Source: Candidatus Sumerlaeota bacterium (GTDB lineage Bacteria; Sumerlaeota; Sumerlaeia; UBA8349). Taken from it: DNA of 64,000 nucleotides. The notes beneath the pieces were generated by a model. That model was not told the DNA's origin. It did not search any database and was given only the letters and a program-made list of their open reading frames with translations. The stretch lies in contig JAFGFN010000026.1 of the NCBI GenBank assembly GCA_016931035.1, positions 21,235-85,234 of the forward strand, written 5' to 3'. Below, piece by piece: positions 34,815-63,658 of this stretch. The stretch's first letter is position 1, and the number at the start of each line of letters is the position of its first letter. A program made the position numbers and the translations under genes.

Positions 34815-35016
34815 GAGGGCGAAAAACGACCGGCGAGAGAGATCGCGCATCCGGGGAGATCGAGCCCCGCCTCGGGTTCGACCGACATCATAGGTCCATT
34901 CCTCGCGTCCCGTCAAACGGCATATCCACACGGCTCTCCTGGGAATCTTGGGGAAGAACCCGGACACGCGCGCTCGAAAAGGGAGGAGGCTCCTTCTCCG
35001 CGGGGATTTCTTGGGC

Positions 35017-35112
35017 TGTCGTTGACTCCGGCCAACTGAAGTTGGAACAACAAACGAAGAATCGGAATCGGTCAGGCCCGTCTGTTTGTCGTTCCAGCTT
35101 CAGCTGGCCAAC
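35017..35112. repeat. 96-bp palindromic repeat element, copy A (REP/MITE-like)
   Basis: Begins tgtcgttgactccggccaactgaagttggaacaacaaacgaaga, has a central loop, and its right arm is the near reverse complement of the left. The first 44 nt are identical to copy B apart from 2 SNPs. Confidence 0.8.
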
Positions 35113-35787
35113 GGCTCCCTCGTTCCCCGGAAATCCCCAAAGGCCCCCCCACGCTTCCGGAGGGTGAGCGGCGCAGAACGGGCGGCATGTTCCGTTCGCC
35201 TTCCTCTGTGCACGCCAAAGGCGTGCCAGCCTCCGGCCTGGGGTTGGCGCGGCGCGGCCGAGCGCAGCGAAGCCGCGCAACGCGGCTACCCCAGGAACAC
35301 GCGACCCCATTTTCGTTCTTCAACCCGGAACGGGTTGTGGCCTATTGGCCCATTGCGCCACAACCCCGTTGGGGTTGTCTGAATTGGGACGTACGTGACC
35401 CAAGGTAGCGCCTGCCCGGCTCCGCTCCGCTTCGCCGTGCCGGGCGGCGCAACCTTGGGCTGTAGGCTGCGGCCCCGTTGGGGCCGAAAAGAAGAACGGG
35501 CCGAAGAAGTCCAATCCGACGCGTTGTATGGACGTTGTCGTTTGTGCAGCACAGACCGACCCCGAGAGTCCGCAGACTTCGCCGCTTCCCCCATCCCCGT
35601 CGTACACGCACTTCCGGAACCGCAGGAGAATCGGGTTGTGTCGCGCACTCGGGCGGTGATACGATCTCTGCCAGTGTCCAGAGACCCTTCTTCTTCCCGT
35701 CTTTCCGGACACAGACCGCTCGTTCGGACGGACCGAGCGCGCGCATCGCGACGGCCGTCGGACCGACACATCTAGAGAGAAGAAACG

Positions 35788-36927
35788 ATGAAAGTACCCC
35801 TGCTGGATCTGAAAGCGCAGCTGGCGCCGATCGAACGCGAGATCAAGGAGGCCGTCCTCGAGGTCGTGGATTCGACCCGCTACATCATGGGGCCTAAGGT
35901 CGAGGAGTTGGAAACGCGGATCGCCGAGTACGTCGGCGCGGCCCGGGCCGTCGGCGTCTCGTCGGGCACCGACGCCCTCCTAGTCTCCCTGATGGCGCTC
36001 GGCGTCGGCTCGGGCGACATTGTGGTGACGACGCCCTATTCGTTTTTCGCCACGGCGGGCGTCGTTGCGCGTCTCGGCGCGACCGCCGCGTTCGTGGATA
36101 TCGATCCCGACACTTACAACATCTCCCCCGCCGCGCTCGAAGAATGGTTCGAACGCGAGACAACCCGCGTCGGCCAAGTCAAGGCCATCGTTCCGGTGCA
36201 TCTCTACGGCCAGTGCGCCGACATGGACCCGATTCTCGAAATCGCGCGACGCTACGGCGTCCCGGTGGTCGAGGATGCGGCCCAGGCCATCGGGGCGACC
36301 TATCCGTCGAAGTCGGGCGTCAAGAAAGCCGGCGCGATGGGAACCGTCGGGTGCTTCTCGTTCTTCCCGAGCAAGAACCTCGGTTGCCTCGGGGACGGCG
36401 GCATGGTAGCGACCGACGACGCGGCCCTCGCCGACAAGATCGTCCTTCTGCGAAACCACGGGGCCCAACCGAAGTACTACCATTCGCTCGTCGGCGGGAA
36501 TTTCCGGCTCGACGCGATACAGGCCGCCGTCCTTCTGGTCAAGTTGCCGCATCTCGATACCTGGCACGCCGGACGCCGCGCCAACGCCGCGTACTACGAC
36601 CGGCATCTGAACGTTCCCGGCCTCAAGAAGCCCCACGTCGCCTACGGACCCGACTCGCACATCTATAATCAGTACGTCCTGGCGGTCCCCGACGACCGTC
36701 GCGACGCCCTTCGCAAACACCTCGACGCGAACGCCGTCGGCAACGAGGTCTACTATCCCGTCCCGTTCCACGAACAGCAATGCTTCGCCCACCTGGGCTA
36801 CAAGACGGGCGATTTCCCGCACAGCGAGCGCGCGGCGCGCCGCACCATCGCCCTGCCGATCTACGCCGAACTGACCGATGGGATGAAGGATTACGTTATC
36901 GAGAAGATCGAGGCATTCTATGAGTAA
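35788..36927 (+). CDS. DegT/DnrJ/EryC1/StrS family PLP-dependent sugar aminotransferase
   Basis: Starts MKVPLLDL. Contains the PLP-lysine region [10 protein letters not shown]. Confidence 0.85.
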
Positions 36928-38548
36928 GAAAGTCTGCGTCGTCGGGGCCGGACGCTGGGGACGCAACCACATCCAGACGTTGCACACGATGGACTGCCTC
37001 GGGGGCATCGTCGAGGCGAACGACGAGACCCTCGCGCGTCTCGCCCAGTCCTACCCCGAGGCCAAGACCTTCCCGAACGTCCGCGACGCCGTGCGCGAGG
37101 AGTTCGACGGATTCACCGTCGCCACGCCCGCCGCGACGCATTTCGAGATCGCGTCGTTCCTTCTGCGCGACAAGAAACACGTCCTGGTCGAGAAGCCGAT
37201 CGCGCTAAAAGCGTCGGAGGCGAGAGAACTCGACGCCCTGGCCCGGCGGCAGGGCGTCCAGCTGATGGTCGGCCACGTTCTCCTCTTCCATCCCGCCATC
37301 GCCAAGATCAAGGAACTCGTCGACGCCGGCAAGATCGGCAAACTCGAGTATCTTTACAGCAATCGCCTCAACCTCGGCGCGGTGCGAACGGAAGAGAACA
37401 TCCTCTGGAGTTTCGCCCCGCACGACATCTCGATCTTCCAACACCTCATCGGGGCGATGCCGACGCAGGTGACCTCGCGCGGCGGAGCCTTTCTCCAGCC
37501 CCACATCCACGACACCACGATGACGGTCCTCTCCTACCCCGACAACGTGGTCGGACACATCTTCGTCAGCTGGCTCCACCCGTTCAAGGAACACCGCCTC
37601 GTCGCCATCGGTTCCAAAGGGATGCTCTCGTTCGACGATTCGAGCGAGAGTAAGGATCTTCTCTTTCACGAAAAGGGGATCGACTGGGTCCAAGGCGAAC
37701 CGGTCAAGCGCGACGGCGCGACCGAGGCGATCCCCTACGACCGGACTCTCCCTCTGACCAACGAGCTGACCTACTTCGTGGACTGCCTGGGCGGCAACCC
37801 CGTCGAACTCGCGGACGGACGCAGCGCCGTCGAGGTCCTCGAAATCCTCGAACAAGCCACCGTGAGTCTCCTCGCCGGGTCGCCCGTCGCGCCTCAACCT
37901 TCGAAGGACTACTTCGTTCACAAGAGCGCCTACGTGGACGAAGGCGCCGAGGTGGGCGCGGGAACGAAGATCTGGCATTTCTCTCACGTCATGAAGGGCG
38001 CCCGGATCGGCGAGCGCTGCATTCTCGGCCAGAACTGCAACGTGGACGGGGGCGCGCTCATCGGCAACAACGTCAAGGTCCAAAACAACGTGTCGATCTA
38101 CGCCGGGGCCGTCATCGAAGACGATGTCTTCCTCGGACCGTCGTGCGTTCTGACCAACGTCACGAACCCGCGCTCCCAAGTCGTACGGCATTCGCTCTAC
38201 GAGAAGACGACGATCCGGCGCGGCGCGTCGATCGGGGCGAACGCCACCATCGTTTGCGGCGTGGAGATCGGACGCTACGCCTTCATCGCCGCCGGCGCCG
38301 TCGTTGCGAAGAACGTCCCCGACTATGCGTTGATGGTCGGGGTCCCGGCGCGGCAAACGGGATGGATGAGCCGCCACGGGCTGCCGCTCCAGAATCCCGA
38401 CGCCGAAGGCGTGATGACCTGTCCCGAGAGCGGGTATCGCTACAAAGAAGCGGTCCCGGGCGTCCTGCGATGTCTCGATCTGGACGAAGAAGCTCCTCTG
38501 CCCGAGGACTTGGCGATAGGGAAACGCCCCTACGACAGTTTCAAGTAG
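36920..38548 (+). CDS. Bifunctional Gfo/Idh/MocA-type sugar-nucleotide dehydrogenase / hexapeptide-repeat N-acetyltransferase fusion
   Basis: Residues 1-330 carry the Rossmann motif [11 protein letters not shown] and an oxidoreductase C-terminal domain. Residues 340-542 carry left-handed beta-helix hexapeptide repeats ([49 protein letters not shown]). Confidence 0.8.
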
Positions 38549-38615: not shown

Positions 38616-40511
38616 ATGGCGAGGAATTCGCGACACAGGAAGGAGACGGAGCTCGATTCCCGACTCGGGAATCGGGTCGAGTCGAGACATTTCGCCCACA
38701 TTTGGTGGCTCCTGATTCTTCTCGGAGTCTTCGTCCAAGTCTCCGACGTTCTTTCGAGCAATTACCTCCCCAAAACAGTGTGGAGCGCCGTCTTTCTCGC
38801 CCTTGCGTTTCTGTTCACGCGGCGCGGATCGGATCGCCCGTTCGGTCTCACCCCGCTGGGCGCGATCTGGCTCGCTTTCGGGCTCTGGGGACTCGCTTCG
38901 GCAATCTGGGCGCCCAGTCCCCGCGTGACGGTCGAGCGATGGATCGCCCTGTTCTTCTTCCCCTCGATGGCCTATCTCGTCGCGCAACGCACTCGTTTCT
39001 GGGAATCGGAAACGTTCTGGACGGCCTATTGCGTTCTCTTCTCGGTCGTCTGCCTTATCGGATGTCTGCAGTTCATCCTCCCGATCGAGTGTCTCAAGCC
39101 GTGGTTCCCGAAGCAGGACTTCCTTGGGTGGATCGAGAGCACCGGTCTCCCCTCTTCGACACTCGGCAACCGAAACTACGCGGGCGAATACCTCGCCGCG
39201 ACGTTTCCTCTCGTCCTGTGGCGTTTCCTCAAGGCCGACGGCCGGGCGATGGTTGTCCCGTTCGTCGCGCTTGGGCTCGGCGCGGCGTTCCTTCTCTTCA
39301 CCCGGACGCGAAGCGCGTGGCTGGCCCTCGCCCTCGCCTTCGCGCTGATCGCCGCCTTCGGAGGCGCGCGGAGAGCGCTTCGCCGCAAACGCAGTCTCCC
39401 GATCCTGGTCGCGACGGCGTGCGTGGTTCTCGCGGCGGGCCTCGTCGTGCGCCCCTCGTCGCGCGTCAAGACGCAGGGTCGCGGCGACGGCTACGGCGGG
39501 ATGCCGGTCTATAAGGACACCCTTCTCCAGTCCTTCCGGTCCACCCTTTCCGATCTCAAAACGAACAAACGCCTGGCGATGTGGCGGCTCGCCTTGAGCG
39601 TCGGGACGAACCCTCTCCTCGGCTGTGGATGGGGAAACTACCCGATCGTCGCGACGCCGTACAACCCCGAAGACAAGATCTTCACGCTCAATTACGAGAT
39701 TCACAGCGACGTTCTTCAGTGCTACGTCGATCTGGGGGTCGTCGGACTCGGAATCGTCCTGGCCTTCGCCGTCCATCTCGCAACCCTCGTCTACAGGCAA
39801 CGCCAAGACGAAAGCCTGATTCTCGCGTCGGGCGCCGCCGTCTTTGCGCTCACGCTCATGCTGTCCGTCACGTTCCTTTCGGAAAAGGTATCGACCCAGA
39901 TTTGGACTGCGGGTATAATCGCCGTCATCAACGACCGGAACGCCCGCCATCCCTGGAAGCGGTTCGACCTGAACCGTTGGGCGCGGGGCGCTCTCCGTTT
40001 CACGGCAGTGGTCGGACTCGCCGCGCTTGCGGTCGCCGCGGGCATGACGGTATGGGGCGATTTCCAGTTCTGGAAGGAGACCGTACGAAACCCTCGGATC
40101 GGCCTGAGTCCGGACTACGACCGTTTGGCGCGTGACGTGCTACCCTGGATGCAGTTCGAGCCGAACGTGATTCACATTCTGACAAACCAGACGTCGAGCA
40201 CGGCGCTTCGCGCGGGGCGTCTCGACGCCACCGAGACGTTCGCCCGCAAAGCCGTGTCGCTTCACTCCAACGATGCCGTCGCGTTGGGCAATCTGGTCGC
40301 CGTCGCGCTCAAGAGGTCGGATTTGGAAACGGCGGCGCGATACCTCGAAGAAATCGTGCGCCTGGGACCGCGATTCGCGACCTTCGACGTTTGGAGGATG
40401 CTGGCGAACTGCTACGCCCGCCTAGGCAAGGAAGACCGGGCGAAGGAATGTCTCGACAAGGCGCTTTCGCTCTTGGCGAGGGACCGCCCCGCCGCGGGGC
40501 GGGCGCCATAA
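38616..40511 (+). CDS. O-antigen ligase (Wzy_C/WaaL) family membrane protein with C-terminal TPR repeats
   Basis: Wzy_C hallmarks (SAWLALALAF and LLGCGWGNY). The roughly 150-aa C-terminus is TPR-like. Confidence 0.65.
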   Translation: MARNSRHRKETELDSRLGNRVESRHFAHIWWLLILLGVFVQVSDVLSSNYLPKTVWSAVFLALAFLFTRRGSDRPFGLTPLGAIWLAFGLWGLASAIWAPSPRVTVERWIALFFFPSMAYLVAQRTRFWESETFWTAYCVLFSVVCLIGCLQFILPIECLKPWFPKQDFLGWIESTGLPSSTLGNRNYAGEYLAATFPLVLWRFLKADGRAMVVPFVALGLGAAFLLFTRTRSAWLALALAFALIAAFGGARRALRRKRSLPILVATACVVLAAGLVVRPSSRVKTQGRGDGYGGMPVYKDTLLQSFRSTLSDLKTNKRLAMWRLALSVGTNPLLGCGWGNYPIVATPYNPEDKIFTLNYEIHSDVLQCYVDLGVVGLGIVLAFAVHLATLVYRQRQDESLILASGAAVFALTLMLSVTFLSEKVSTQIWTAGIIAVINDRNARHPWKRFDLNRWARGALRFTAVVGLAALAVAAGMTVWGDFQFWKETVRNPRIGLSPDYDRLARDVLPWMQFEPNVIHILTNQTSSTALRAGRLDATETFARKAVSLHSNDAVALGNLVAVALKRSDLETAARYLEEIVRLGPRFATFDVWRMLANCYARLGKEDRAKECLDKALSLLARDRPAAGRAP

Positions 40512-40750: not shown

Positions 40751-42712
40751 TTGCGACTCATGATTCGCGCTTTCGACATCGCTTTCTCCCTCGTCGCGCT
40801 CGTGCTGCTCGCTCCGCTTGCGCTCTTGATCGCCTTATTGATCAAGATCGATTCGAGCGGCCCCGTCCTCTTTCTCCAAAAACGCGTCGGGCGCGGCGGC
40901 GTTCCGTTCACGATGTTCAAGTTCCGCAAGATGCGCGAGGGGCTCGCCAACCAAGGGCCCGCCGTCACGTCGCGCTACGACAGCCGCCTCACCGTCGTCG
41001 GACGCTGGCTCGAACGAACGAAGCTCGACGAGCTCCCCCAACTCCTCAACGTCCTCAAGGGCGACATGGCCGTCGTTGGCCCTCGACCCGAACTCGAGGA
41101 GTTCACGCGCTTCTATCCCGAGAAATGGAAGGACGTCCTTTCCGTCCGGCCCGGCTTGATCGGCCCCAGCCAGGTCCTCCATCGCAACGAGTCCGAGCTC
41201 TATCCGCCCGACTGTCGCGACCGCGAGGATTTCTACGTCCGCCGTATCCTGCCCGACAAACTCGATTGCGACATCCGGTACATCGAGAACGCTTCGCTTC
41301 TCTACAACCTCACCATCCTGATGCGAGCGCTCTTTCGCACGCTAATCGGGACGATCACACGCGATTCGACGATCTCGACGGCCCGGAGCCTCTATCTGCT
41401 CGTCTCCTATACGCTAGTCTCCATCCTGAGTCTCTACGCCGCCTACCGGCTCCGGTATCCGGACGCCATGCCGGTGACCGACGCGCGGATCTTCAGACTC
41501 AGCTTCCCCATTCCGATCGTTGTGTATCCGCTCGTGTTCCTGTCGCTGCGCGTCCATCGCCGCATGTTCGGGAGCCTGACGCTCGAAGACGTGACGGCGT
41601 TCTTCAAGAGCTGCGTCGTCGGGTCGTTCCTGATGATCCTGGTCCTTCTGATCCTCGACGCCCGGGAGTTCTCGAGACTGGTCTACAGCATCGACTTCGT
41701 TTTCCGTTTTCTCGGCCTGACGCTCCTGGCCTACGTCGAGTATCAATACACTCAAAAACGCAAGCTCCTGACCGGCCGCGACATCGTCCGAGCGGTCGTC
41801 TTCGAGGCGGTCGCCGTCGCCTTTTTGGTCCTGTGCTCGATTCTTCTCATCGCCTTCGCCGTCCCTCGCCCGTCCGAAGCCGCCGCCGACTTCGCGCGAA
41901 CGATCTGGGCCGTCGCCGCGCTCGCCGTCGCCGCGCCGCTCATCTACATGGCGACCTTCCAGGAAGTCCCAAGACGACTCGTCTACTATCTCAAGGTCAA
42001 GATGAAGCAAACCGCCATCATGCTCGCCCAAGGCGCGTTGTTCCTCGTGGTCGTCTCGCTCCTCCTCGACGTGCGCGACTACTCGCGCCCCGCCGTCCTC
42101 CTCTCGATCGTCGTCCTGACCGCGTCGCTCATGGCGTTCTTCGTTCTCACTTGGTGGTTGCGCTGGCGCTCGCTTCCCGAGGTCCGGCGCGACCGCGTGC
42201 TCCTGATCGGTCTCGCGCCCGACCTCGACCTGTTCATCACCGCGCTGCAACGCAGCCACGTCGACTACTCGATCGTCGGCATCATCAGCGACGAGACACG
42301 GGATCGGTTCTATACCGTCTCGAAGATCGAGATTCTGGGGACGCTCAACGAGCTCGAAGACGTCCTCAACGTATACCGCGTGGATACGTTCGTCGTCTCG
42401 TCCGAACGCCTCGGCCCCCACGAGATGGCCTGGGTGCGGCAAATCGCCCGCGCGCACAACGTCGCGGTCCGATACATCACCGGGGTCGATCGGTTCATGC
42501 GGCTGGATGCGGAGCGAGAGGAATCCGCACTGGAACGGTCGGCAGTGGAAGAAATCGCGAAGCCTTCACTCCCCGTCACCCCTCCCGCGGAAAAAGCGGA
42601 AGCGGCAAACGGCGAAAGGAAACGGAAGCGTTCATCTCGTTCGCGCCGCGCCGCCGCGTCTCGACCGAAGGAACCGCCACGCGCCGCAGAGACTTCCGAA
42701 TCCGTAGGATAG
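40751..42712 (+). CDS. Polyprenyl-phosphate sugar phosphotransferase (Bac_transf/WbaP catalytic domain) with permuted domain order
   Basis: The N-terminal 200 aa form the complete sugar-transferase catalytic domain (KRVGRGGVPFTMFKFRKM ... DELPQLLNVLKGDMAVVGPRPE). They are followed by a multi-TM segment, a Rossmann-like CoA_binding_3-like region (VLLIGLAPD...VDTFVV) and a basic low-complexity tail. Confidence 0.75.
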   Translation: MRLMIRAFDIAFSLVALVLLAPLALLIALLIKIDSSGPVLFLQKRVGRGGVPFTMFKFRKMREGLANQGPAVTSRYDSRLTVVGRWLERTKLDELPQLLNVLKGDMAVVGPRPELEEFTRFYPEKWKDVLSVRPGLIGPSQVLHRNESELYPPDCRDREDFYVRRILPDKLDCDIRYIENASLLYNLTILMRALFRTLIGTITRDSTISTARSLYLLVSYTLVSILSLYAAYRLRYPDAMPVTDARIFRLSFPIPIVVYPLVFLSLRVHRRMFGSLTLEDVTAFFKSCVVGSFLMILVLLILDAREFSRLVYSIDFVFRFLGLTLLAYVEYQYTQKRKLLTGRDIVRAVVFEAVAVAFLVLCSILLIAFAVPRPSEAAADFARTIWAVAALAVAAPLIYMATFQEVPRRLVYYLKVKMKQTAIMLAQGALFLVVVSLLLDVRDYSRPAVLLSIVVLTASLMAFFVLTWWLRWRSLPEVRRDRVLLIGLAPDLDLFITALQRSHVDYSIVGIISDETRDRFYTVSKIEILGTLNELEDVLNVYRVDTFVVSSERLGPHEMAWVRQIARAHNVAVRYITGVDRFMRLDAEREESALERSAVEEIAKPSLPVTPPAEKAEAANGERKRKRSSRSRRAAASRPKEPPRAAETSESVG

Positions 42713-43790: not shown

Positions 43791-44915
43791 GTGACGAAAG
43801 TGAAGATTCTCACCGTCGTCGGCGCGCGGCCCCAATTCATCAAGGCCGCCATGGTGAGCCGCGCCGTCGCCCGACACAACGCCGCCGCCCTCCCCACGGC
43901 CCCACCCGTAGTCGAGGAAATCGTCCACACGGGTCAGCACTACGATCACGGAATGAGCCAGGCCTTCTTCGACGAGATGGAGATCCCCGGTCCCGCCGTC
44001 AATCTCGGCGTCGGGTCGGGCACCCACGGCGAGACAACCGCCGCCATGCTCCGCGGCCTCGAGGCCGAGATCGTCGCGCGCCGTCCCGACTGGGTCCTCG
44101 TCTACGGCGACACGAATTCGACTCTCGCCGGCGCGCTGGCCGCCGCGAAACTCCACGTCCCCGTCGCGCACGTCGAGGCCGGGCTGCGTTCCTTCAACAA
44201 ACGAATGCCCGAGGAGATCAACCGTCTCGTCGCCGACCACGTCTCGACCCTTCTCTTCTGCCCCACCCGCGCGGCGGTCGAGAACCTCGCGAGCGAGGGG
44301 ATCGCCGACGGAGTTCACGCGGTGGGCGACGTGATGTACGACGCCGCGCTCGCCTTCGGAGACCTCGCCCGCCAACACAGCGACGTTCTCGATCGCCTCG
44401 GTCTCGCGCCGAAGGGCTACGCCCTCGCCACCTGTCACCGCGCCGAAAACACCGATAGCGGCGAACGCCTCGCCGCCATTCTCGACGGCCTGGGCCGCGT
44501 CGCCGAGTCCGTGCCGGTCGTTTTGCCGCTCCACCCTCGCACGCGCGAGCGGATCGAACGATTCGGGTTCGCGAAACGCGCCGAGCGTCTCCGCACCGTC
44601 GAGCCCGTCTCGTTTCTCGACATGATCCGGCTCGAGCAGGAGGCGCGCGCGATCCTCACGGACTCCGGCGGCGTTCAGAAGGAGGCCTACTTCCACGGCG
44701 TGCCGTGCGTCACGTTGCGCGACGAGACCGAATGGGTCGAGACTGTCGAGGCCGGATGGAACACCCTGGCGGGCGCCGACGCCGACGCGATCGCCCAGGC
44801 CGCGCGCGACGCCTCCCCCGGCCGCCCGATCGCCGACTACGGCGACGGCCACGCGGCGGACAAGATCCTCTCAATCCTTCTCTGCCCTTCCTCAAACCCC
44901 GAGGAAGAAACCTGA
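43791..44915 (+). CDS. wecB: UDP-N-acetylglucosamine 2-epimerase (non-hydrolysing)
   Basis: Contains the WecB motifs (VGARPQFIKAA and HVEAGLRS). GTG start at 43791 or 43800. Confidence 0.85.
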   Translation: MTKVKILTVVGARPQFIKAAMVSRAVARHNAAALPTAPPVVEEIVHTGQHYDHGMSQAFFDEMEIPGPAVNLGVGSGTHGETTAAMLRGLEAEIVARRPDWVLVYGDTNSTLAGALAAAKLHVPVAHVEAGLRSFNKRMPEEINRLVADHVSTLLFCPTRAAVENLASEGIADGVHAVGDVMYDAALAFGDLARQHSDVLDRLGLAPKGYALATCHRAENTDSGERLAAILDGLGRVAESVPVVLPLHPRTRERIERFGFAKRAERLRTVEPVSFLDMIRLEQEARAILTDSGGVQKEAYFHGVPCVTLRDETEWVETVEAGWNTLAGADADAIAQAARDASPGRPIADYGDGHAADKILSILLCPSSNPEEET

Positions 44916-45101: not shown

Positions 45102-47012
45102 TCAAACGAACGGTCTACGGTTGTCGAGGAACTGGCGGCAGAAGCTGTTGAGGCAGAGGAAACCCCAGATCTTGCGGCCGAAACTCGGCTCGCTCGGAAG
45201 ACCCCGCCGGATCGCGTCGAAATCGAGAAACTCCCGCGCCGCCTGCGAGGGTTCGCCGAACGCCTTCTCGACGAACTCCTTGAGCGCGTCGCCGTACCAT
45301 TGCACCAGCGGGACCGGGAATCCCATCTTGTCCTTGCGCCCGAGGACGCTCGCGGGCAGGGTGTCGCCGAAGAAGAGTTTGGGCAGACGCTTGAGCTCGC
45401 CCCCCCTGAACTTCACGTTCGCCGGGATCGTCGCCACGAACTCGACCAGCGGATGGTCGAGGAACGGGGTGCGCGACTCGACGCCGTGCGCCATGCTCGT
45501 CCGGTCCTCCACTTGGAGCAGCGCGGGCAGGAGCGTGAGGAAGTCGAAGTGGAGCATGCTGTCGAAGTAGCATCGGCTCCCGATCTCGTTGGAGAAATAC
45601 ACGCGGCGAAACTCTTCGTACACGTCGTAGTCGCGCGGGAAAGCGTCCCACCGCACTTCGTCGCGCACCTCGGCGCTGCGGTCGATCAGGCGGAAGTAAC
45701 GGCGGTCGTAGTCGTCGAACATCCCGGCGCTGAAGAAGTGGCGCATCAGAGGCTCGTATCCGGCGAGCGACTGGAGATTCGGGATGATCGACTCATAGGT
45801 GACGATGAAACGCGGCGAATGGCTCTCGCCCGCCACCGCGCCTTTGAGGCACTGCTCGAAGTAAGCGATCAGGTATCGAACGTACCCGCCGAAGATTTCG
45901 TCCGCGCCCTGTCCCCCTAGGACGACCTTGCGTTTCCCTTTCACGTACTTCGAGACGACGTACTGAGGGAACGAGCCGGGCCCGGCGACCGGGAAGTCCA
46001 TGTGATAGATCAGGCGGTCGAACGCATCGACGAAGTCGTCGCTCGACACCGGGATCTCGCGCAGGTCGATCCCTTCGCGTCGCGCGACGTCGCGCGCGAA
46101 CCCGCTTTCGTCGAACCGTTCGCCGTATCCGCGAAAGACGCCGTGGAACGCCATGAAATCGTCGGCGCCCGTCGCGCGTCGGGCCAGGGCGGCGATGCCG
46201 CTCGAATCGATGCCGCCGCTCAGATAGCCGCTCACGGGAACGTCGCTCACGACGTGCGCGCGGATCGAGTCCTCCATGAGCTCGCGGCATCGCTCGACGA
46301 ACCACGCCTCGCCGTGCTCCATGTCGAGGTCGTACCGTACCTTCCAGTAGGTGTGTGACCGCGTCCCCTCGGAATCGACCGTCCGCCACGTAGCGGGCGC
46401 GACCTCCTCGATGTTCTCGAACAGGGTCTTGCCGCGCAGGCAGAACTGGAAGGTCAGATAATCGCGCAGTCCCGAGCGGTCGATCCGCACGTCGGGAAGG
46501 AACGAAAAGAGCGCCTTGATCTCGGAGGCGAAATAGAGCGTCTCGCCCGACCAGGCGACGTACAACGGCTTGATCCCGAAACGATCGCGCGCGAGGAAGA
46601 GCCGTCGGCGGCGGGCGTCCCAGATCGCGAAGGCGAACATCCCGCGCAGGTACTCGGGACAGGCCTCGCCCCACTCCATATAGGCCTTGAGGATCACCTC
46701 GGTGTCGGACTGCGTCCGAAAGCGGTGCTTGGATTCGAGGCGGGCGCGCAGCTCGCGAAAGTTGTAGATCTCGCCGTTGAAGACGATAGTGAGGTCGGCC
46801 TCGTCTTCGCGCATCGGTTGGCGCGCGCGTTCCGAGAGATCGAGAACGCTGAGCCGAACGTGGCCCATCCCGAGGGCGGCGTCGGGCGCGAGCCAGAGAC
46901 CTTCGTCGTCGGGTCCGCGGTGCTTCTGCAGGGCGTTCATCCGCTCGAGGCGTTCGCCCAGCCGGTCGATCGCCCCGCCTGACGGATTGAAGATTCCCGC
47001 GATCCCGCACAT
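45102..47012 (-). CDS. asnB: Asparagine synthetase B-type glutamine amidotransferase
   Basis: N-terminal MCGIAG nucleophile and the PP-loop SGGIDSS. Confidence 0.85.
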   Translation of the reverse strand: MCGIAGIFNPSGGAIDRLGERLERMNALQKHRGPDDEGLWLAPDAALGMGHVRLSVLDLSERARQPMREDEADLTIVFNGEIYNFRELRARLESKHRFRTQSDTEVILKAYMEWGEACPEYLRGMFAFAIWDARRRRLFLARDRFGIKPLYVAWSGETLYFASEIKALFSFLPDVRIDRSGLRDYLTFQFCLRGKTLFENIEEVAPATWRTVDSEGTRSHTYWKVRYDLDMEHGEAWFVERCRELMEDSIRAHVVSDVPVSGYLSGGIDSSGIAALARRATGADDFMAFHGVFRGYGERFDESGFARDVARREGIDLREIPVSSDDFVDAFDRLIYHMDFPVAGPGSFPQYVVSKYVKGKRKVVLGGQGADEIFGGYVRYLIAYFEQCLKGAVAGESHSPRFIVTYESIIPNLQSLAGYEPLMRHFFSAGMFDDYDRRYFRLIDRSAEVRDEVRWDAFPRDYDVYEEFRRVYFSNEIGSRCYFDSMLHFDFLTLLPALLQVEDRTSMAHGVESRTPFLDHPLVEFVATIPANVKFRGGELKRLPKLFFGDTLPASVLGRKDKMGFPVPLVQWYGDALKEFVEKAFGEPSQAAREFLDFDAIRRGLPSEPSFGRKIWGFLCLNSFCRQFLDNRRPFV

Positions 47013-48382: not shown

Positions 48383-49183
48383 ATGAAGTCCGGCCCTCTG
48401 TGTTTGCTCACCAAGCACCGCGCCATGTTGTGTCGAACAACGTGGAACGAGATCAAGGCGCGTTACGCCGGCTCGATTCTCGGGCTCGCCTGGCTCGTTT
48501 TCTATCCTCTCCTGTTCCTCGGAGTCTACTCGGTCTTCATCTACATCCTGATGGGAAAGCGCGCAGGCGATCTTTCCGATCCCGCCTTGATCGACCAGGT
48601 GCTTCTCGTTTTCTGCGGCCTGATTCCGTTCATCGGTTTCGCCGAAGGGTTGGCGGGCGGCGTGGTCTCGGTCACGCAGAACGCGAACCTGATCAAGAAC
48701 ACCCTGTTCCCCATCGAACTGGTCCCCGTCAAGGCGGTCCTCGTCGGGCAGTGCACCCAGGTGGTCGGTACGGCGATGCTGCTGGTGTGTCTGGCCGTCT
48801 TCGGCAAGTTGACGATCTGGGTTCTCGTTCTGCCGCTCGTCTGGCTGCTGCAAATCGCCCTGTCGGTAGGGGTGGCCTGGATTCTGTCGAGCCTCAACGT
48901 CTATTTCCGCGACCTGCAAAACATCGTCGGCGTCGTCACGTTGATGTTGATGTTGATCAGCCCGATCGCCTGGAAGGCGGTCGACATCCCGGCGAGCGTT
49001 CTGCCGTGGATGATGTTCAACCCCTTGTACTACGTCATCGTCGCGTGTCAGCAATGTCTGTTGCTCGGTCGTTTCCCCGACCCGATCCTTCTCGAAGTGC
49101 TCGGAGTTCTCGCCGTGCTCGTCTTCTTCGGCGGATACGCCTTCTTCCGCAGGATGAAGCGTGTGTTCGCCGACAACGTCTGA
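48383..49183 (+). CDS. wzm: ABC-2 type polysaccharide export permease
   Basis: 266 aa, 6 TM helices, ABC-2 family pattern. Confidence 0.8.
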   Translation: MKSGPLCLLTKHRAMLCRTTWNEIKARYAGSILGLAWLVFYPLLFLGVYSVFIYILMGKRAGDLSDPALIDQVLLVFCGLIPFIGFAEGLAGGVVSVTQNANLIKNTLFPIELVPVKAVLVGQCTQVVGTAMLLVCLAVFGKLTIWVLVLPLVWLLQIALSVGVAWILSSLNVYFRDLQNIVGVVTLMLMLISPIAWKAVDIPASVLPWMMFNPLYYVIVACQQCLLLGRFPDPILLEVLGVLAVLVFFGGYAFFRRMKRVFADNV

Positions 49184-49193
49184 AGGCGTCCAA

Positions 49194-51047
49194 ATGAACG
49201 ATTCGGCCATCCGCCTCAAAGAGCTCGGGAAGATGTACAAACTCTTCCGCCATCCGGCGGACAGGGTGTTCGACGCGTTCGGTCTCCGCCGCCGTCCGTT
49301 CGGACCCAAACTCGTCTTCCAGGAGTTCTGGGCGCTGCGCGGCATCGACCTGCGCGTGACCAAGGGGGAGAGAATCGGCATCATCGGCCAGAACGGCGCG
49401 GGCAAAAGCACCCTGCTCAAGATCGTCACCGGCGTCGCTGCGCCGACCGAAGGGAGCGTCGAGGTCTCGGGACAGATTCAGGCCTTGCTCGAACTCGGGA
49501 CCGGTTTCCACCCGGAATTCACGGGACGCGAGAACATCCGGGCGTCGTTGTCGCTCAACGAATTCTCCTCGTCCGAGATCCGCGAGATGGAGGAGGATAT
49601 CGTCGACTTCGCGGAACTCGGCGATTTCATCGACCACCCTCTCAAGACCTATTCGGCGGGGATGGCGGCCCGATTGGCTTTCTCGACCGCCTCGGCCATT
49701 CGGCCCGAAATCCTCATCATCGACGAGGTCCTGGGCGCGGGCGACGCCTACTTCGCGGGCAAATGCGTCGAACGGATGAAGCAACTCACCCACGAATCGG
49801 GCGCGACGGTCCTCTTCGTCAGCCACGACCTGAACAGCGTCCAGGCCCTGTGCGAGCGCGTCCTCTGGATTCATCGCGGCCAGGTGCATCGCGACGGCGC
49901 GCCGCTCGATACGATCCAGGACTACATGGCGATGGTGCGGCGCGACGAGGAAACGCGGCTCCGCGCGCGCGACCTGAGAGTCCTGAAGAAACAGGCCCTC
50001 TTCCTCGAACGGGACGAGGACGTTTACGAAAAGACCTTGTTCCACTTTGTTTGTCCCGGATCGCCTCCCCCGCCGCCGGGACAGCGCATCTACGGCCTGA
50101 CCCTCTCGGTCGACGAGCAGGAGGCCGCCCGAATCGCGGTCGGGAGCCCGATGGACAATTCGGCCGATCACATGAATTACCTCATGGACACTCCCGGCTA
50201 CATGGACTGGGGACCCGCCGCCAAGGATCGCAACAGTCGGCCCTATCGCGAGTACGGCGACTACAAGGGGCGCTACGGCCACGCCCCCTTCGAGTTCGCC
50301 GTGCCGCGCACTCTGTTGCGCGAGGGCGAGACGCAACGCCTTCAACTCGACATCGAAGCCTCCGTCACTCATGAGGGCATCGCCGTCGAGGCGTACAACG
50401 GCGAGGCCTATGTCCCGATCGGCCCCGTCGCTACGGGCGAAGGCGTGGCGACGCGCCTCGAGTTTTCGAGCGCCCTTCTCCGACCCGGAAAGCAAGCGCT
50501 CGGCGCCGCCGCGCCGTCCGGAGAAACCGCTCTTCTGTCCGCCGCCGAACGTCCGGCCGAGCACGCGCCTCAACAACCCGTCCGCCACGAATACGGCGCG
50601 GGAGGGGCGAAGATTCTCCAGGTGCGAATGCTCAACGCCCAGGGCGAGGACACGCGCGTCTTTCATCCCGACGAACCGATGCGGGTCGAGATCGAATTCC
50701 AAGCCGAGGCCGAGCTGGCCGATCCCGTCTTCGTGTTCTGCGCCTATCTGCCCGACGGCCGGTGCGCCACCCAGTGGATCGTCGATTCGCGGACAATGGG
50801 CTCGCCCCGCGTGCCGCCGGGCAAGGGGCGCGCGACGTTTCGGATCGACCGGCTTGTCTTGGGCAAGTCCGCCTACGTCGCCAGCGCGGCGATCTTCAAG
50901 TTCCTGCGTCCCGACGGGCGGGAACCCGAAAGCTATCACGTCCTCGACCGATGCATCCATTTCCAAGTGGTACAAGGCGTAGAACACGTTTACGAGAAAG
51001 GGTTGTGCGTGCAACCCTTCGAGGCGGAGATCGATCTTGGACGCTGA
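49194..51047 (+). CDS. wzt: Polysaccharide ABC exporter ATP-binding protein with a C-terminal carbohydrate-binding extension
   Basis: Nucleotide-binding domain (GQNGAGKST, LSGG-like, DEVLGAGD) in residues 1-250. About 180-aa unique linker. C-terminal 150-aa Wzt_C-like beta-sandwich (KILQVRMLNAQGE...). Confidence 0.85.
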   Translation: MNDSAIRLKELGKMYKLFRHPADRVFDAFGLRRRPFGPKLVFQEFWALRGIDLRVTKGERIGIIGQNGAGKSTLLKIVTGVAAPTEGSVEVSGQIQALLELGTGFHPEFTGRENIRASLSLNEFSSSEIREMEEDIVDFAELGDFIDHPLKTYSAGMAARLAFSTASAIRPEILIIDEVLGAGDAYFAGKCVERMKQLTHESGATVLFVSHDLNSVQALCERVLWIHRGQVHRDGAPLDTIQDYMAMVRRDEETRLRARDLRVLKKQALFLERDEDVYEKTLFHFVCPGSPPPPPGQRIYGLTLSVDEQEAARIAVGSPMDNSADHMNYLMDTPGYMDWGPAAKDRNSRPYREYGDYKGRYGHAPFEFAVPRTLLREGETQRLQLDIEASVTHEGIAVEAYNGEAYVPIGPVATGEGVATRLEFSSALLRPGKQALGAAAPSGETALLSAAERPAEHAPQQPVRHEYGAGGAKILQVRMLNAQGEDTRVFHPDEPMRVEIEFQAEAELADPVFVFCAYLPDGRCATQWIVDSRTMGSPRVPPGKGRATFRIDRLVLGKSAYVASAAIFKFLRPDGREPESYHVLDRCIHFQVVQGVEHVYEKGLCVQPFEAEIDLGR

Positions 51048-54000
51048 CACCCAATACTTCGATCAGCCCGAAATCTGGGGACAGGCGCCGGAACCGTACC
51101 AGCGCCAGGTCCTGGCGGACGTTCTCAGTCTGTTGCCCGACGACGTCGAGAGCGTCCTGGACGCCGGCTGCGGCGACGGCTACATCGCGAACGCCCTGCC
51201 CGAACGCCTTCGCGTCGTCGGACTCGACGTGAGCGAAACGGCCCTCCAACACGTCCGCCGGGAAACGCGGGTCGGGTCGATCGCGGACCTTCCGTTCCCC
51301 GACGGATCGTTCGATCTCGCGATGGCCAACGACGTGGTCGAACATCTGTCGAAAGAGGATTACCGGCGGGCCCTGGCCGAACTGCGGCGCGTCTCTCGGA
51401 AGTACATCCTTCTCACGGTTCCCCTCAACGAACAACTCGAAGCGAACGAAGCCCGGTGCGCCGATTGCGGGGCGATCTACCACGTGAACCATCATCGGCG
51501 ATCTTTCTCCGAACGGTCCCTCGATCGTCTGTTCGGCGCCAGGTTCAAAGTCGTCGAAACCCGGCTGTCGGGAGACGTGACCGGAAGACCGCGCGACCCG
51601 ACCGCCGCGCTTCGTCGGAACCTGGGTTTCTATCACACATGGGAAAAGGCTATGTGCCCCGAGTGCGGGTCGAAACGCCAAATCCAGCCACCCACTTCTT
51701 CCACCCTGCGCCGGACGCTCGACGCTCTGCGCACGCGACGTTATGCGGAGACTCTCGTGCAACGCGGCCCGTGGAACGATCGTTCGGAAATCGTCGCGCT
51801 GTTCTCGCGTCGCCCGGGGCGGGTCCCTCTCGAAGACCTCTCTCCCGAAACGTTCTCCGTCCCCGCGCTCCGTGTGAATCTCGCCAATGCTCTCCAACGC
51901 GCCGAACCTGGGTTCACGCCGGGCGCGATCCGGCCTCGCTTTCTAACCCGGGGACCGTGGGAAGCGACCCCCAACGGTCTCCAAGCCCGGACGGGCGACG
52001 AACCGTCGCTCGTCCTCATCCGCTTTCCCGTCGAGCCCCGAGAAGGCGATCGACTCATCGTCGAAAGCGAGGGACGCGGTCGGTTGATCGTCTCCTCCCT
52101 CGATCCTCTCCTCGGGCGCGCGTTCGCTCTTCAGGACAAGCGCTACACGCAGGAGGACGCCCGGTTTCTGGAGATTCCCGTTTGCGAGACCTGGTGGCCC
52201 GACCAGGCGGGTTGGGGACTGGAGATTGTCGCCCAAGACGCTCTCGTGCTTCATTCCGTCGAGCTCCGGCCCGCCTCGGACGCCGCTCGGCGAACACTCA
52301 ACGCCGTCCGTCTCGAACCGGGACACCACATCGTGCGACGAACGATCGACGGCGTGGTGCGTTCGTGGGGACTCATGACGGAACACGCAGGATGGCGCCC
52401 GCTGCCGGATCTCGAAGCGTTCTTCTCGAAATCTCGCCCCAAACCCGAATCCCACGACGCCGATTGGGCTGAGTTCGCCGAGACGATCCGGGAGGCGGAC
52501 GACCGACGCCGCCGCGAGATCGATCTCCTCCGACGCGGCTCCGAGTTGACCGAGACGAAGCGCGCGAGGGCCGAAGAAGCGTATTCTCAAGCGCAAGAAC
52601 GGGCCTCGGCGGTGGAGACGGCGCGCGACGAGATGCAGGCGCTTCGAACCCAAGTCGAGACGCTCCGCGCCGCGCTGACTCGCACCGAGGAGGCGCGAGA
52701 CCGGGCCGAGAAGAGCTATATCGCCGCCTGCGAAGAACATCGGGCCTTGAGCGCCGAAACGGAATCGCTGCGCAAGACTCTGGCTCAAACCGAGGAGGGA
52801 TGGAGCCGGGCCGAGAAAACCTACATCGCCGCCTGCGAAGAACACCAGGCGCTTTGCGCCGAGACCCAGTCGTTGCGCGACGGTCTCGCGCGGACGGAAG
52901 AGGCGCGGAATCGAGCGGAGAAGAGCTATATCGCCGCGTGCGAAGAACATCAGGCGATGCGTCGCGGGACGGAGTCTTTGCGCAACGCCCTCACCGAGGC
53001 CGAGAACGCGCTCCGGCGCGCGCAGGAGGACCACGAGACGGACCTGAAGGAGAAAGAGCGTCTCCGCGACGAAGCGCGAGAACTCCGGACGGCCCTGTCT
53101 CAGGCCCAGGAGACCCGCCGGCGCGCCGAAGAATCGTGCGCGGCACTGCGCGACGAGAAGAACGCGCTCCACGACCAGCTCGCGAACGTGCGCGACGCGC
53201 TCGTTCAGGTGGAACAGGCGCGCGACCGCGCCGAGAACGCTCGCGTCGCCCTGTCCGAAGAACGGCTGGCGCTTCGAGTCGACATGGACGCCCTGAGACG
53301 TTCTCTCGCTCAGACCGAGAAAGAACGTCTCAGGATCGAAAGCGCGTCGGCCGCGCTGGAACGTCGAGTGATGAAACTCGAGCAGGCGCTGACCGATGCG
53401 GAACAGGAAATCGCGACCTCGAAACAGGAAGTCGCCTCTCTGCACGATGAGACCGTCCGCGCCGAGGTAGAGATCGACAAGACGCGCAGGCAGCGCGACA
53501 AGGCGGAGAACGCCTGTGTCGTCCTGCGAAAATCCCACGAAGACCTCGAGAAGCGCCTCGCGGCCCTAACCGAAGAATGTCGCTCGATGCGAGGCGTGCG
53601 GGGCGGGACGCGCGAGATTCTCTACGCCGTCAAGAAATGGATCGTCGGGCACCCTCCCGATTCGCCAGACGAGACGTATCCCGCGCGCTGGAAGTCGTTG
53701 CCCGCCGCCCTCGCCGACGGCCGCTCGCCCCGGGTCCTCGTTCTGTCCCACATGTTCCCGCATCCCGATCAACCCGCGCTCGGCTCCTTCATCCTCGAGC
53801 AGGTCCGGGCGCTCCGTCGCGACGCGGGAGTCGACGCCCGCGTCCTTTCGGGCCGACCTTACTGGATGAACCTCTCGCGCCATCCCCGAACGCTGTGGCT
53901 CCGAAACCTCGACTATTCGCGCAAGGCGCTCCCCAACGTCCGCTGGCGTGAACTCGACGGCGTCCCGGTCATGTACGTCCCCTACCGAGTCGTCGCCCGT

Positions 54001-61717: not shown

Positions 61718-63658
61718 CTAAGCCGCGACGGGCACGGCGCGCATCGCCTCGCGCCACATCATGAGAATAACGAGGCTCATCCTCTGTTTGCCATGCAGAA
61801 GATCGAGCCGTCCGGTCCCGTCGCGAAGACGACGCACGGCGTCCGGATCGAGCCATTCCTGCCCGCGCAAACGCTCGTCGCCGAGCCATTCCTCCTCGAG
61901 TCGCGCGAGCGCTTCGCCGTAGGCTTCTTCGAGCGGGACGTGGAACGCCTGTTTCCGTCCGCCGCCGGCGTAGCCCGGAATCCAGCGCTCGGCGCAGGTC
62001 CGCAAAATCCGCTTGTTCGTCCCGCGACGAATCTTCCACCCGATCGGAAGCGCCGTCGCGAGCTCGACCAGGCGCGGGTCGAGAAACGGCACCCGGCCTT
62101 CGAGCGACGCCCCCATCGTCATCTTGTCCATCTTGAGCAGAATGTTGTCGGGAAGCCAGAATCGGCACTCCTGCTCCAAGAGCGCGTCGAAAAGGCCTTG
62201 CGCGCCCCGCTCGCGCGAGCGCGCCAGGTCCGCCGCGAGATCGCCGGTCACGTCGCGGACGTCGTCGTGTCCGTCGCGCCACTCGGGACGAAGGAGCCCG
62301 TCGAGCGCCGCGTCGTCGAAAAGCGAAACGTGCGCCATGTACATCGCCTCGGGATGCCCCATCGCCGCGAGCATCGCCGCCAAACGCTCGCGACCCGACA
62401 CGCCGAGCGACGATGGATAGTCGAAGAACCGATCGAGCCAAGCGACCGGCGTACGACTCACCGCCCACCCCGCCGCGCGTCCGACGGCGCGAGCGAGCGG
62501 CCCGAGCCGCCGCGAGGCTCCGAACAGGCGCAACAGGTTCTTCTGATGGAGGTAGCCGCCGAGCAACTCGTCCGCCCCTTCGCCCGTCAGGACCACTTTG
62601 ACCTCGCGCGCCGCGGCCCGGGACAGAAGATAGAGTGGCAGAATGATCGCGTCGCCCAACGGCTCGTCCATCAGGCGCACGGCGTCGGGAAGGAGCCGCA
62701 TGTCGTCGGGACGCATCCGAATCGAGGTGTGCCGCGCGCCGATCCGCCGCGCCAGAGACTCCGCCGCCGCCGTTTCGTCGCGTGCCGTGCCGAAACCCAT
62801 CGAAAACGTTCGCACCGGTTCGTCCGTGTGGCGCGCCATCAGACTCACGATGCTTCCCGAGTCCACTCCCCCGCTCAGGAAGGCCCCCACGGGCACGTCG
62901 GCCATCATCTGCATCCGAACGGCGTCTTCGGCGAGAGAGGCGAACTCGTCAATCGCGTCTTCCTCGCGCTTCCACCGCTCTTCGCCCCGGAAACGCGTTT
63001 GCCAATAGGGCTTGGTACACACCGCGCCGTTCTCGATCGTCATCCGATGCCCCGGCGGAAAACGCCGTATGGAACGCCACATCGTATGAGGACCCGGAAC
63101 GTAGCGAAGCCGCAGATAGAGCCGCAGCGCCGCGGGATCCACGTCGCGCCGAACCCACGGCAGCGTCAGGAGCGACTTGACCTCCGAGGCGAATACGAAG
63201 CTCTCCGGCGTCTCGGCATAAAACAAGGGTTTGACGCCCATCGGGTCGCGCGCAAGAACCAGACGGCGGCGTGGGGCGTCCCACAACCCGAACGCGAAAA
63301 TGCCATTGAGGCGTCTCACCATCTCCTCGCCCCATTCGGCGTAGGCGTGGAGAAGCGTTTCCGTGTCGCACCGCGTGCGAAAGACCCGCCCGCGCGACTC
63401 CAGCTCGCGACGCAAGTCCATGAAGTTGTATATCTCGCCGTTGTAGACGACGACCAGGCCGCCGTCGGCGCTCGCCATCGGCTGCGCGCCGCCTTCGAGA
63501 TCGACGATGCTCAACCGCTGGTGCCCCAAACCGATCATGCCGTCCGGCGCGAGATAGACCCCTTCTCCGTCCGGACCCCGGTGCGCCATCTGCGCGCGCA
63601 TCGCGTCGAGGCGCTCGCGCGTCGCGCCCGGGCCGAGAATCCCACAAATGCCGCACAT
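61718..63658 (-). CDS. asnB: Asparagine synthetase B-type glutamine amidotransferase, second paralog
   Basis: MCGICGI nucleophile and SGGVDS PP-loop. Confidence 0.85.
   Translation of the reverse strand: MCGICGILGPGATRERLDAMRAQMAHRGPDGEGVYLAPDGMIGLGHQRLSIVDLEGGAQPMASADGGLVVVYNGEIYNFMDLRRELESRGRVFRTRCDTETLLHAYAEWGEEMVRRLNGIFAFGLWDAPRRRLVLARDPMGVKPLFYAETPESFVFASEVKSLLTLPWVRRDVDPAALRLYLRLRYVPGPHTMWRSIRRFPPGHRMTIENGAVCTKPYWQTRFRGEERWKREEDAIDEFASLAEDAVRMQMMADVPVGAFLSGGVDSGSIVSLMARHTDEPVRTFSMGFGTARDETAAAESLARRIGARHTSIRMRPDDMRLLPDAVRLMDEPLGDAIILPLYLLSRAAAREVKVVLTGEGADELLGGYLHQKNLLRLFGASRRLGPLARAVGRAAGWAVSRTPVAWLDRFFDYPSSLGVSGRERLAAMLAAMGHPEAMYMAHVSLFDDAALDGLLRPEWRDGHDDVRDVTGDLAADLARSRERGAQGLFDALLEQECRFWLPDNILLKMDKMTMGASLEGRVPFLDPRLVELATALPIGWKIRRGTNKRILRTCAERWIPGYAGGGRKQAFHVPLEEAYGEALARLEEEWLGDERLRGQEWLDPDAVRRLRDGTGRLDLLHGKQRMSLVILMMWREAMRAVPVAA

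Follow-up and report, generated by a model that had tools for sequence, protein, structure and literature searches.

A 64,000-nucleotide stretch of contig JAFGFN010000026.1 from Candidatus Sumerlaeota bacterium (assembly GCA_016931035.1; the whole stretch is hereafter called the window) carries two overlapping genes, one for a DegT-family aminotransferase and one for a 542-residue protein in which a Gfo/Idh/MocA-family dehydrogenase is fused to a left-handed beta-helix acetyltransferase. Judged by homology, the pair very likely provides the three core activities of a Wbp/Wlb-type route leading to a 2,3-diacetamido-2,3-dideoxy hexuronic acid. An earlier note, made from the letters of this DNA, had read the pair as a two-gene route to a di-N-acetylated amino sugar, and this functional reading was supported by the family matches and catalytic residues described below.

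The gene pair and its protein domains

The two open reading frames (ORFs), including the 8-nt overlap that the earlier note had reported, were recovered in place, and Pfam domains were assigned to both products. The junction of the two genes reads ...ttctATGAGTAAgaaa, with the ATG of the fusion gene and the TAA of the aminotransferase gene both lying within the shared 8 nt. This overlap, ATGAGTAA, suggests that the two genes are translationally coupled. Both frames have a coding pattern of base composition, with a GC content of 0.84 at third codon positions (GC3) versus approximately 0.41 at second positions in a sequence of 64% GC. The start codon of the fusion gene is supported by an alignment of 120 homologues, whose N-termini were collinear with the pattern M-x-KK-[IV]CVVGAGRWG.

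The union of a 3-dehydrogenase and an N-acetyltransferase in one polypeptide, as the earlier note had proposed, was upheld by several lines of evidence. Pfam placed GFO_IDH_MocA at residues 4-119, the GFO C-terminal domain at 128-323, and Hexapep/left-handed beta-helix (LbH) repeats at 330-480. An AlphaFold2 model built with the 120-homologue alignment had a mean predicted local distance difference test (pLDDT) score of 90.9, with dips in the linker and the last approximately 30 residues. The best 120 of at least 8000 candidate database matches were all full-length two-domain fusions of 513-565 residues with 57-83% identity, and the protein was matched contiguously over residues ~1-510 at 80 independent genome loci. 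An artificial joining of two genes, through faulty sequencing or assembly or a recent frameshift, was ruled out as an explanation, since all 120 best matches come from independent assemblies. A protein 100% identical is deposited at NCBI under the name 'Gfo/Idh/MocA family oxidoreductase [Candidatus Sumerlaeota bacterium]', and species-representative genomes contain at least 595 stretches matching the fusion. The reading frame continues through the linker, and the domains before and after it are modeled with confidence. We therefore regard the chance of an artefact as vanishingly small.

By sequence and by modeled fold, the C-terminal domain is unambiguously assigned as a WlbB/WbpD-type sugar N-acetyltransferase. 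It matched crystallized WlbB of Bordetella petrii (3mqg) with an E-value of 2e-64 over residues 333-509 (58% identity over 177 residues), and in Foldseek the modeled domain aligned to 3mqg/3mqh with template modeling (TM) scores of 0.90-0.92 and 55% identity. Pfam Hexapep was detected at 1.4e-24, and the AlphaFold2 model displayed regular short strands over residues 332-480. The next matches after WlbB were other sugar N-acetyltransferases, 4mzu (2.7e-35) and 7s43. N413 is invariant in the 120 homologues, and in the alignment to WlbB both N413 and R423 fall opposite identical residues. We take the active-site Asn and Arg of WlbB to be Asn84 and Arg94, the tentative mapping of which onto N413 and R423 assumes a 2-residue offset.

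Two other identities for the beta-helix domain were considered and rejected on score. The gamma-carbonic-anhydrase model, which bears on the earlier note's concern that the domain might belong with non-acetyltransferase LbH proteins, reached 2.5e-10, about 54 orders of magnitude worse than WlbB, and the LpxA/LpxD acyltransferase models reached only 1e-13 to 1e-17.

In the linker between the two enzyme domains, pLDDT falls to 64 at residues 321-330. The C-terminal tail is acidic or proline-rich; some fusions, drawn from several phyla, keep it and the rest lack it, with loci L016-L033 matching through residue 542. Its pLDDT is low (76-39), and it could be a docking peptide. A separate observation concerns the segment that follows the beta-helix. 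Many fused homologues have there a four-Cys, zinc-ribbon-like pattern, CECG...CP(R/K)C (alignment columns 520-550), while the 542-residue protein (residues ~481-510, positions 38360-38449) and WlbB have a degenerate SRHG...CPESG in which one Cys is kept (C501, invariant).

The earlier note had likened the dehydrogenase to both WbpB/WlbA and GnnA, and only the second likeness stood. As far as sequence and modeled structure can tell, the N-terminal domain is of the GnnA-like or archaeal type rather than the WbpB/WlbA type. In phmmer searches of the PDB the domain matched 3c1a (6e-23), GnnA (7bvj, 1e-22), and, far lower, WlbA (3q2k, 2e-7). Foldseek with the modeled domain gave 7bvj, the UDP-N-acetylglucosamine 3-dehydrogenase GnnA, as top hit (E 2e-21, TM 0.87-0.91), with 3q2k at rank 41 (TM 0.73-0.79, 18-20% identity). 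Besides 3q2k, no recognizable WlbA or WbpB entry was present among the best 60 PDB matches. Identity to the GnnA and archaeal-type enzymes was 24-26%, and the best NCBIfam model was NF040723, the archaeal UDP-GlcNAc (uridine diphosphate N-acetylglucosamine) 3-dehydrogenase, at 3.6e-44.

The protein has the two-domain Gfo/Idh/MocA fold with the lysine of the EKP motif (K92). The earlier note had asked after the catalytic residues of this domain; K92 and H168 are kept, and G9xG11, E91-K92-P93, W163, H168 and D169 are invariant in the 120 homologues, with Ser164 nearly so. Of the 150 nearest cluster representatives, at least 114 had the resulting K/S/H/D signature, and most of these were stand-alone proteins of 300-380 residues. 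The idea that Ser164 is peculiar to the fusion was rejected, the residue being a hallmark of the whole dehydrogenase subfamily including its stand-alone members.

The separate aminotransferase, a fold-type I DegT domain, matched Pfam PF01041 (DegT_DnrJ_EryC1) over the full profile at 1.3e-115. Its PDB matches were led by 7b0d (4.9e-86), WbpE (3nu7, 3.9e-80), QdtB (3frk, 5.4e-79) and 2oga (4.5e-79). The C3-aminotransferases WbpE and QdtB, as well as 2oga, which is labelled 'Transaminase' and which we take to be DesV, a C3-aminotransferase, rank ahead of C4 enzymes. The lysine expected to bind pyridoxal 5'-phosphate (PLP), K196, lies in the motif FFPSKNLG and aligned to the same motif of 7b0d.

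Predicted product sugar and alternative routes

The identity of the product is indicated by a third gene, encoding a WbpI/WlbD-type 2-epimerase. The epimerase matched the Thermus thermophilus enzyme (8sxv/8sxy) at 2e-134 with 61% identity, whereas ordinary UDP-GlcNAc 2-epimerases matched far less well (4neq, 2.6e-83; E. coli 1f6d, 5e-39). The Thermus epimerase is adapted to a 3-acetamido uronic acid by Ala18, Tyr96 and Trp307, and UDP-GlcNAc 2-epimerases have Leu/Met, His/Gln and Arg at these positions (PMC10622841). The window epimerase keeps all three specificity residues, as A19, Y105 and W315, and D107 is present as the equivalent of the catalytic Asp98. The epimerase thus most likely takes the product of the two-gene module as its substrate. 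Because of its 61% identity to the Thermus enzyme and the three retained residues, the end product of the cluster would most likely be UDP-ManNAc3NAcA (the 2,3-diacetamido-2,3-dideoxymannuronic acid derivative), with the two-gene module supplying UDP-GlcNAc3NAcA (the corresponding glucuronic acid derivative).

The proposed pathway would begin with oxidation at C3 of a UDP-N-acetylglucosamine-type sugar by the N-terminal domain with nicotinamide adenine dinucleotide (NAD+). The sugar is most likely UDP-GlcNAcA (the N-acetylglucosaminuronic acid form), for which the 6-dehydrogenase gene would lie outside the window. From the 3-keto product the separate DegT enzyme, with PLP and an amino donor that is probably glutamate, would then form the 3-amino sugar, and the beta-helix domain would N-acetylate the 3-amino group with acetyl-CoA (acetyl-coenzyme A) to give UDP-GlcNAc3NAcA. 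The 2-epimerase encoded 5 kb downstream would convert this to UDP-ManNAc3NAcA, which glycosyltransferases, the Wzy-like protein and the sugar-phosphate transferase would build into a surface polysaccharide, and asparagine-synthase-like (AsnB-like) enzymes may amidate the uronic acid afterwards. Homology is the basis on which we propose the substrates, which of C6 and C3 is oxidized first, and how the cofactor is recycled.

Several observations weigh against this pathway. No UDP-GlcNAc 6-dehydrogenase of the WbpA type was found in the window, whether all sizeable ORFs were searched with Pfam or the six frames were scanned for the catalytic Cys motif. As the epimerase points to a uronic acid product, a 6-dehydrogenase would also be needed, and the two genes that the earlier note had read as a route would not complete it. 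The dehydrogenase domain resembles enzymes characterized on UDP-GlcNAc rather than UDP-GlcNAcA, so C3 oxidation might precede C6 oxidation. The domain also fell short of the NF040723 equivalog cutoff (151.5 bits versus 450 bits), and Ser164 (positions 37409-37411) replaces the Asp of the Asp-x3-His motif found in GnnA and 3c1a. Most Gfo/Idh/MocA enzymes have Asp at this position. Finally, 19 of 83 related loci were without a DegT gene within 6 kb.

Some of these same observations would fit a route in which the chemistries take place on the neutral sugar, converting UDP-GlcNAc to UDP-GlcNAc3NAc (its 3-acetamido derivative), with C6 oxidation occurring later or, for part of the pool, never. Such a route would be in keeping with the substrate used in vitro by the GnnA-type and archaeal 3-dehydrogenases. 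The best matches of the N-terminal domain, GnnA 7bvj and NF040723, are UDP-GlcNAc 3-dehydrogenases, and, beyond the missing 6-dehydrogenase gene of the window, a UDP-HexNAc (UDP-N-acetylhexosamine) 6-dehydrogenase-type gene was present in the flanks of only approximately 9 of the 83 related loci. However, the acetyltransferase domain is closely related to WlbB, which was crystallized with the uronic acid form of the substrate (UDP-GlcNAc3NA), and a nucleotide-sugar 6-dehydrogenase gene lies directly upstream of the fusion gene at five loci (L020, L027, L030, L047 and L054). The epimerase, moreover, retains the Ala18/Tyr96 pair that has been tied to the C6 carboxylate (PMC10622841). We consider the neutral-sugar route unlikely.

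Far less probable still is that the genes form a GnnA/GnnB-like pair making UDP-GlcNAc3N for a diamino-glucose lipid A, with the beta-helix domain acting as an LpxA/LpxD-like acyltransferase. The GnnA-like fold of the dehydrogenase domain and the weak LpxA/LpxD matches would agree with it, but the WlbB match is far above any Lpx model, and the neighboring genes encode Wzy_C, Bac_transf and glycosyltransferase proteins and the UDP-GlcNAc3NAcA-type epimerase. No lpx genes were found in Pfam scans of the surroundings of the pair. The uronic acid pathway ending in UDP-ManNAc3NAcA is thus the one that we favor.

For that pathway, the fusion would most simply secure co-expression and a 1:1 stoichiometry of the first and last of the three steps, and the aminotransferase may, in addition, be held in a complex scaffolded by the fusion. 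The earlier note had seen a notable channelling arrangement in it. The fusion joins the first and third steps, and the labile 3-keto sugar must still pass to the separate DegT enzyme; therefore, the fusion alone gives no channelling, which we treat as a hypothesis and not a finding. The existence of triple fusions (below) makes it plausible that DegT docks onto the fusion protein. GnnA is reported to be a dimer, and WlbB-type beta-helix enzymes are trimers, a mismatch that would favor a hexamer or larger particle. It is conceivable, though rather doubtful, that such a fusion hexamer or larger assembly docks the DegT dimer and retains the 3-keto and 3-amino sugars, that the triple fusions are its hard-wired form, and that, in the Ser164 subfamily, an unfavorable oxidation is drawn forward by this coupling instead of by alpha-ketoglutarate recycling.

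Related loci and the surrounding polysaccharide cluster

The fusion is widespread. The search for it covered one genome per species and gave at least 595 matching stretches, and the phyla or groups with matches include Planctomycetota, Desulfobacterota, Acidobacteriota, Nitrospirota, Chloroflexota, Bacteroidota, Verrucomicrobiota, Gemmatimonadota, Saccharibacteria and others. The fusion thus occurs in hundreds of bacterial species, as a putative but abundant and ordinary variant of a well-known pathway. A search of the accessible literature found no paper describing a WbpB-WbpD-type dehydrogenase-acetyltransferase fusion. The arrangement is less notable than the earlier note had held, given how widespread it is, the solved precedents of ArnA and FdtD, and the fact that the fused steps do not hand over the labile keto intermediate. 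The chemistry is predictable, the architecture follows a known pattern, and the proteins are already deposited.

A DegT gene was immediately adjacent to the fusion gene at 48 of the 83 related loci (upstream in 17, downstream in 31). Overlaps of 4 or 8 nt are frequent at these junctions; the 8-nt overlap was found in L001, L013 and L046, and the 4-nt overlap was common in the opposite gene order. An Epimerase_2 homologue was found in the flanks of 19 of the 83 loci. In the Desulfobacteraceae locus L001 the whole arrangement of a 653-residue Bac_transf protein, DegT and fusion is repeated, including the 8-nt overlap, with the transferase gene preceding the pair.

The dehydrogenase subfamily occurs in four architectures: alone (P0122), fused to the acetyltransferase (the window protein and P0140), fused to DegT (P0260, 751 residues), and as a triple fusion. 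The triple fusions have the order dehydrogenase-acetyltransferase-DegT and are represented by P0160 (892 residues) and by a 941-residue ORF of a Thermodesulfobacteriota metagenome-assembled genome (L070, 5890-8715, plus strand). Since they are only 44% identical to each other and yet collinear, they are not artefacts. The triple and GFO-DegT fusions are good evidence, at the level of gene architecture, that the three activities would work together.

From its neighbors, the gene pair is placed within a surface-polysaccharide (O-antigen or exopolysaccharide) region (Table 1). Upstream on the minus strand are genes for a MATE/Wzx-like transporter, a glycosyltransferase-like membrane protein and a family 4 glycosyltransferase (GT4). 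Downstream are those for a Wzy_C/tetratricopeptide repeat (TPR) protein, a 653-residue sugar-phosphate transferase, a family 2 glycosyltransferase (GT2), the epimerase, an AsnB-like amidotransferase and another GT4. Further on lie an ABC-2 Wzm/Wzt exporter, a 1307-residue methyltransferase-GT4 protein, more methyltransferase and GT2 genes, a B12 radical S-adenosylmethionine (SAM) gene and a second AsnB-like gene. Both amidotransferases gave as best NCBIfam model the general asparagine synthase TIGR01536, with the exopolysaccharide-associated TIGR03108 second and below its cutoff. They are candidates that may convert the uronic acid to a uronamide.

Table 1 Features of the gene pair and its cluster, with positions in the window.
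Feature	Position	Strand	Remarks
DegT/WbpE-type PLP-dependent sugar 3-aminotransferase gene (predicted)	35788..36927	+	379 aa, ATG start
Fused dehydrogenase-acetyltransferase gene	36920..38548	+	542 aa, ATG start
Overlap ATGAGTAA	36920..36927	+	8 nt; aminotransferase stop and fusion-gene start
Gfo/Idh/MocA NAD-dependent sugar 3-dehydrogenase domain, GnnA/archaeal type (predicted)	36920..37876	+	residues 1-319; Pfam PF01408/PF22725/PF02894
Linker, proline-rich	37877..37912	+	~12 residues (320-331); unconserved and length-variable in alignment; joins both enzyme domains
Left-handed beta-helix N-acetyltransferase domain, WlbB/WbpD type (predicted)	37913..38449	+	residues 332-510, including WlbB-like C-terminal beta-hairpin segment
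C-terminal tail and stop codon	38450..38548	+	residues 511-542, ends YDSFK; conserved in one subfamily of fusions
Wzy_C (O-antigen ligase/polymerase-like) membrane protein with C-terminal TPR repeats	38616..40511	+	Pfam PF04932 2.6e-14, TPR families
Polyprenyl-phosphate sugar-phosphate transferase (Bac_transf)	40751..42712	+	653 aa; PF02397 9.6e-54; TIGR03025 1e-77
WbpI/WlbD-type UDP-2,3-diacetamido-2,3-dideoxy-glucuronic acid 2-epimerase (predicted)	43791..44915	+	374 aa; 5 kb downstream of gene pair
Asparagine-synthase-like glutamine amidotransferase	45102..47012	-	Pfam Asn_synthase 1.7e-79 and GATase_7
Second asparagine-synthase-like glutamine amidotransferase	61718..63658	-	Pfam scan

Between the divergent GT4 gene and the DegT gene is a gap of approximately 0.8 kb (34968-35787) without a convincing ORF. 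An Rfam search of this gap gave nothing above threshold. It contains a weak, imperfect 28-nt inverted repeat (35321-35377), and promoter and terminator scans gave no more than the shuffled expectation.

Other features of the cluster were noted in passing. The 653-residue transferase, both in the window (40751-42712) and in L001 (4854-6815), has Bac_transf at its N-terminus (6-197), followed by a long membrane region and CoA_binding_3 (429-546), a domain order that is the reverse of that usual in WbaP/WcaJ, where the catalytic domain is C-terminal. On the plus strand at 48383-54960 are an ABC-2 permease, a Wzt ATPase with a Wzt_C carbohydrate-binding domain, and then the 1307-residue protein, whose methyltransferase is N-terminal and GT4 C-terminal. 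With this second export route, the window holds both Wzy-type and ABC-type polysaccharide machinery. A long frame on the minus strand (54982-58353) has coding-like GC3 without any Pfam match, and the radical SAM gene with its B12-binding domain lies at ~60255-61700, also on the minus strand.

Sugars of the ManNAc3NAcA type are best known from the O-antigens of Pseudomonas and Bordetella and from archaeal N-glycans. If the proposed pathway is correct, a Sumerlaeota bacterium, a member of a candidate phylum, would decorate its surface with such sugars, and a large and phylogenetically diverse range of uncultured bacteria would produce them through a GnnA-like dehydrogenase instead of WbpB. In practice the gain is better annotation; the NCBI name covers the oxidoreductase only, and the JGI annotation of relatives, UDP-2-acetamido-3-amino-2,3-dideoxy-glucuronate N-acetyltransferase, covers the acetyltransferase half only. 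Taken together, the stand-alone proteins, both types of two-domain fusion and the three-domain proteins would also be a ready system for probing channelling of the 3-keto sugar.

Comparison with known systems

The predicted pathway follows that of WbpB/WbpE/WbpD in Pseudomonas aeruginosa and WlbA/WlbC/WlbB in Bordetella, in which C3 oxidation, transamination and N-acetylation are followed by a WbpI-type 2-epimerase. The aminotransferase, acetyltransferase and epimerase are clear homologues of the Wbp/Wlb enzymes. Unlike in those systems, the dehydrogenase and acetyltransferase of the window pair are on one polypeptide, the dehydrogenase is close to the GnnA type, and no WbpA gene was found in the cluster. 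WbpB and WlbA either hold NAD(H) tightly and recycle it with alpha-ketoglutarate or follow a sequential mechanism (PMC10622841).

With GnnA of Acidithiobacillus ferrooxidans (7bvj) and the archaeal UDP-GlcNAc 3-dehydrogenase the window dehydrogenase shares the EKP lysine and the catalytic His-Asp pair, but GnnA is a stand-alone protein that feeds lipid A synthesis. The archaeal enzyme is exemplified by MMP0352 of Methanococcus; a literature search on the Methanococcus genes found nothing.

The closest parallels in architecture are found in other pathways. ArnA of E. coli combines a UDP-GlcA (UDP-glucuronic acid) decarboxylating dehydrogenase with a UDP-Ara4N (UDP-4-amino-4-deoxyarabinose) formyltransferase, around the DegT-family enzyme ArnB. 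As in the window pair, one chain carries out both a keto-forming oxidation and the N-acylation of the amino sugar, and a separate DegT-family aminotransferase acts between them. The folds are nonetheless unrelated, a short-chain dehydrogenase/reductase and a formyltransferase in ArnA versus Gfo/Idh/MocA and a beta-helix here, and the two systems use different sugars and different acyl groups. FdtD of Shewanella denitrificans (4mzu) is described as a bifunctional 3,4-ketoisomerase/N-acetyltransferase in a title cited in PMC8040287. Like the window fusion, it joins a WlbB-like beta-helix N-acetyltransferase to the enzyme that makes the keto substrate for the intervening aminotransferase, FdtB; its partner domain, however, is a cupin ketoisomerase, and its substrates are deoxythymidine diphosphate (dTDP)-linked 6-deoxy sugars.

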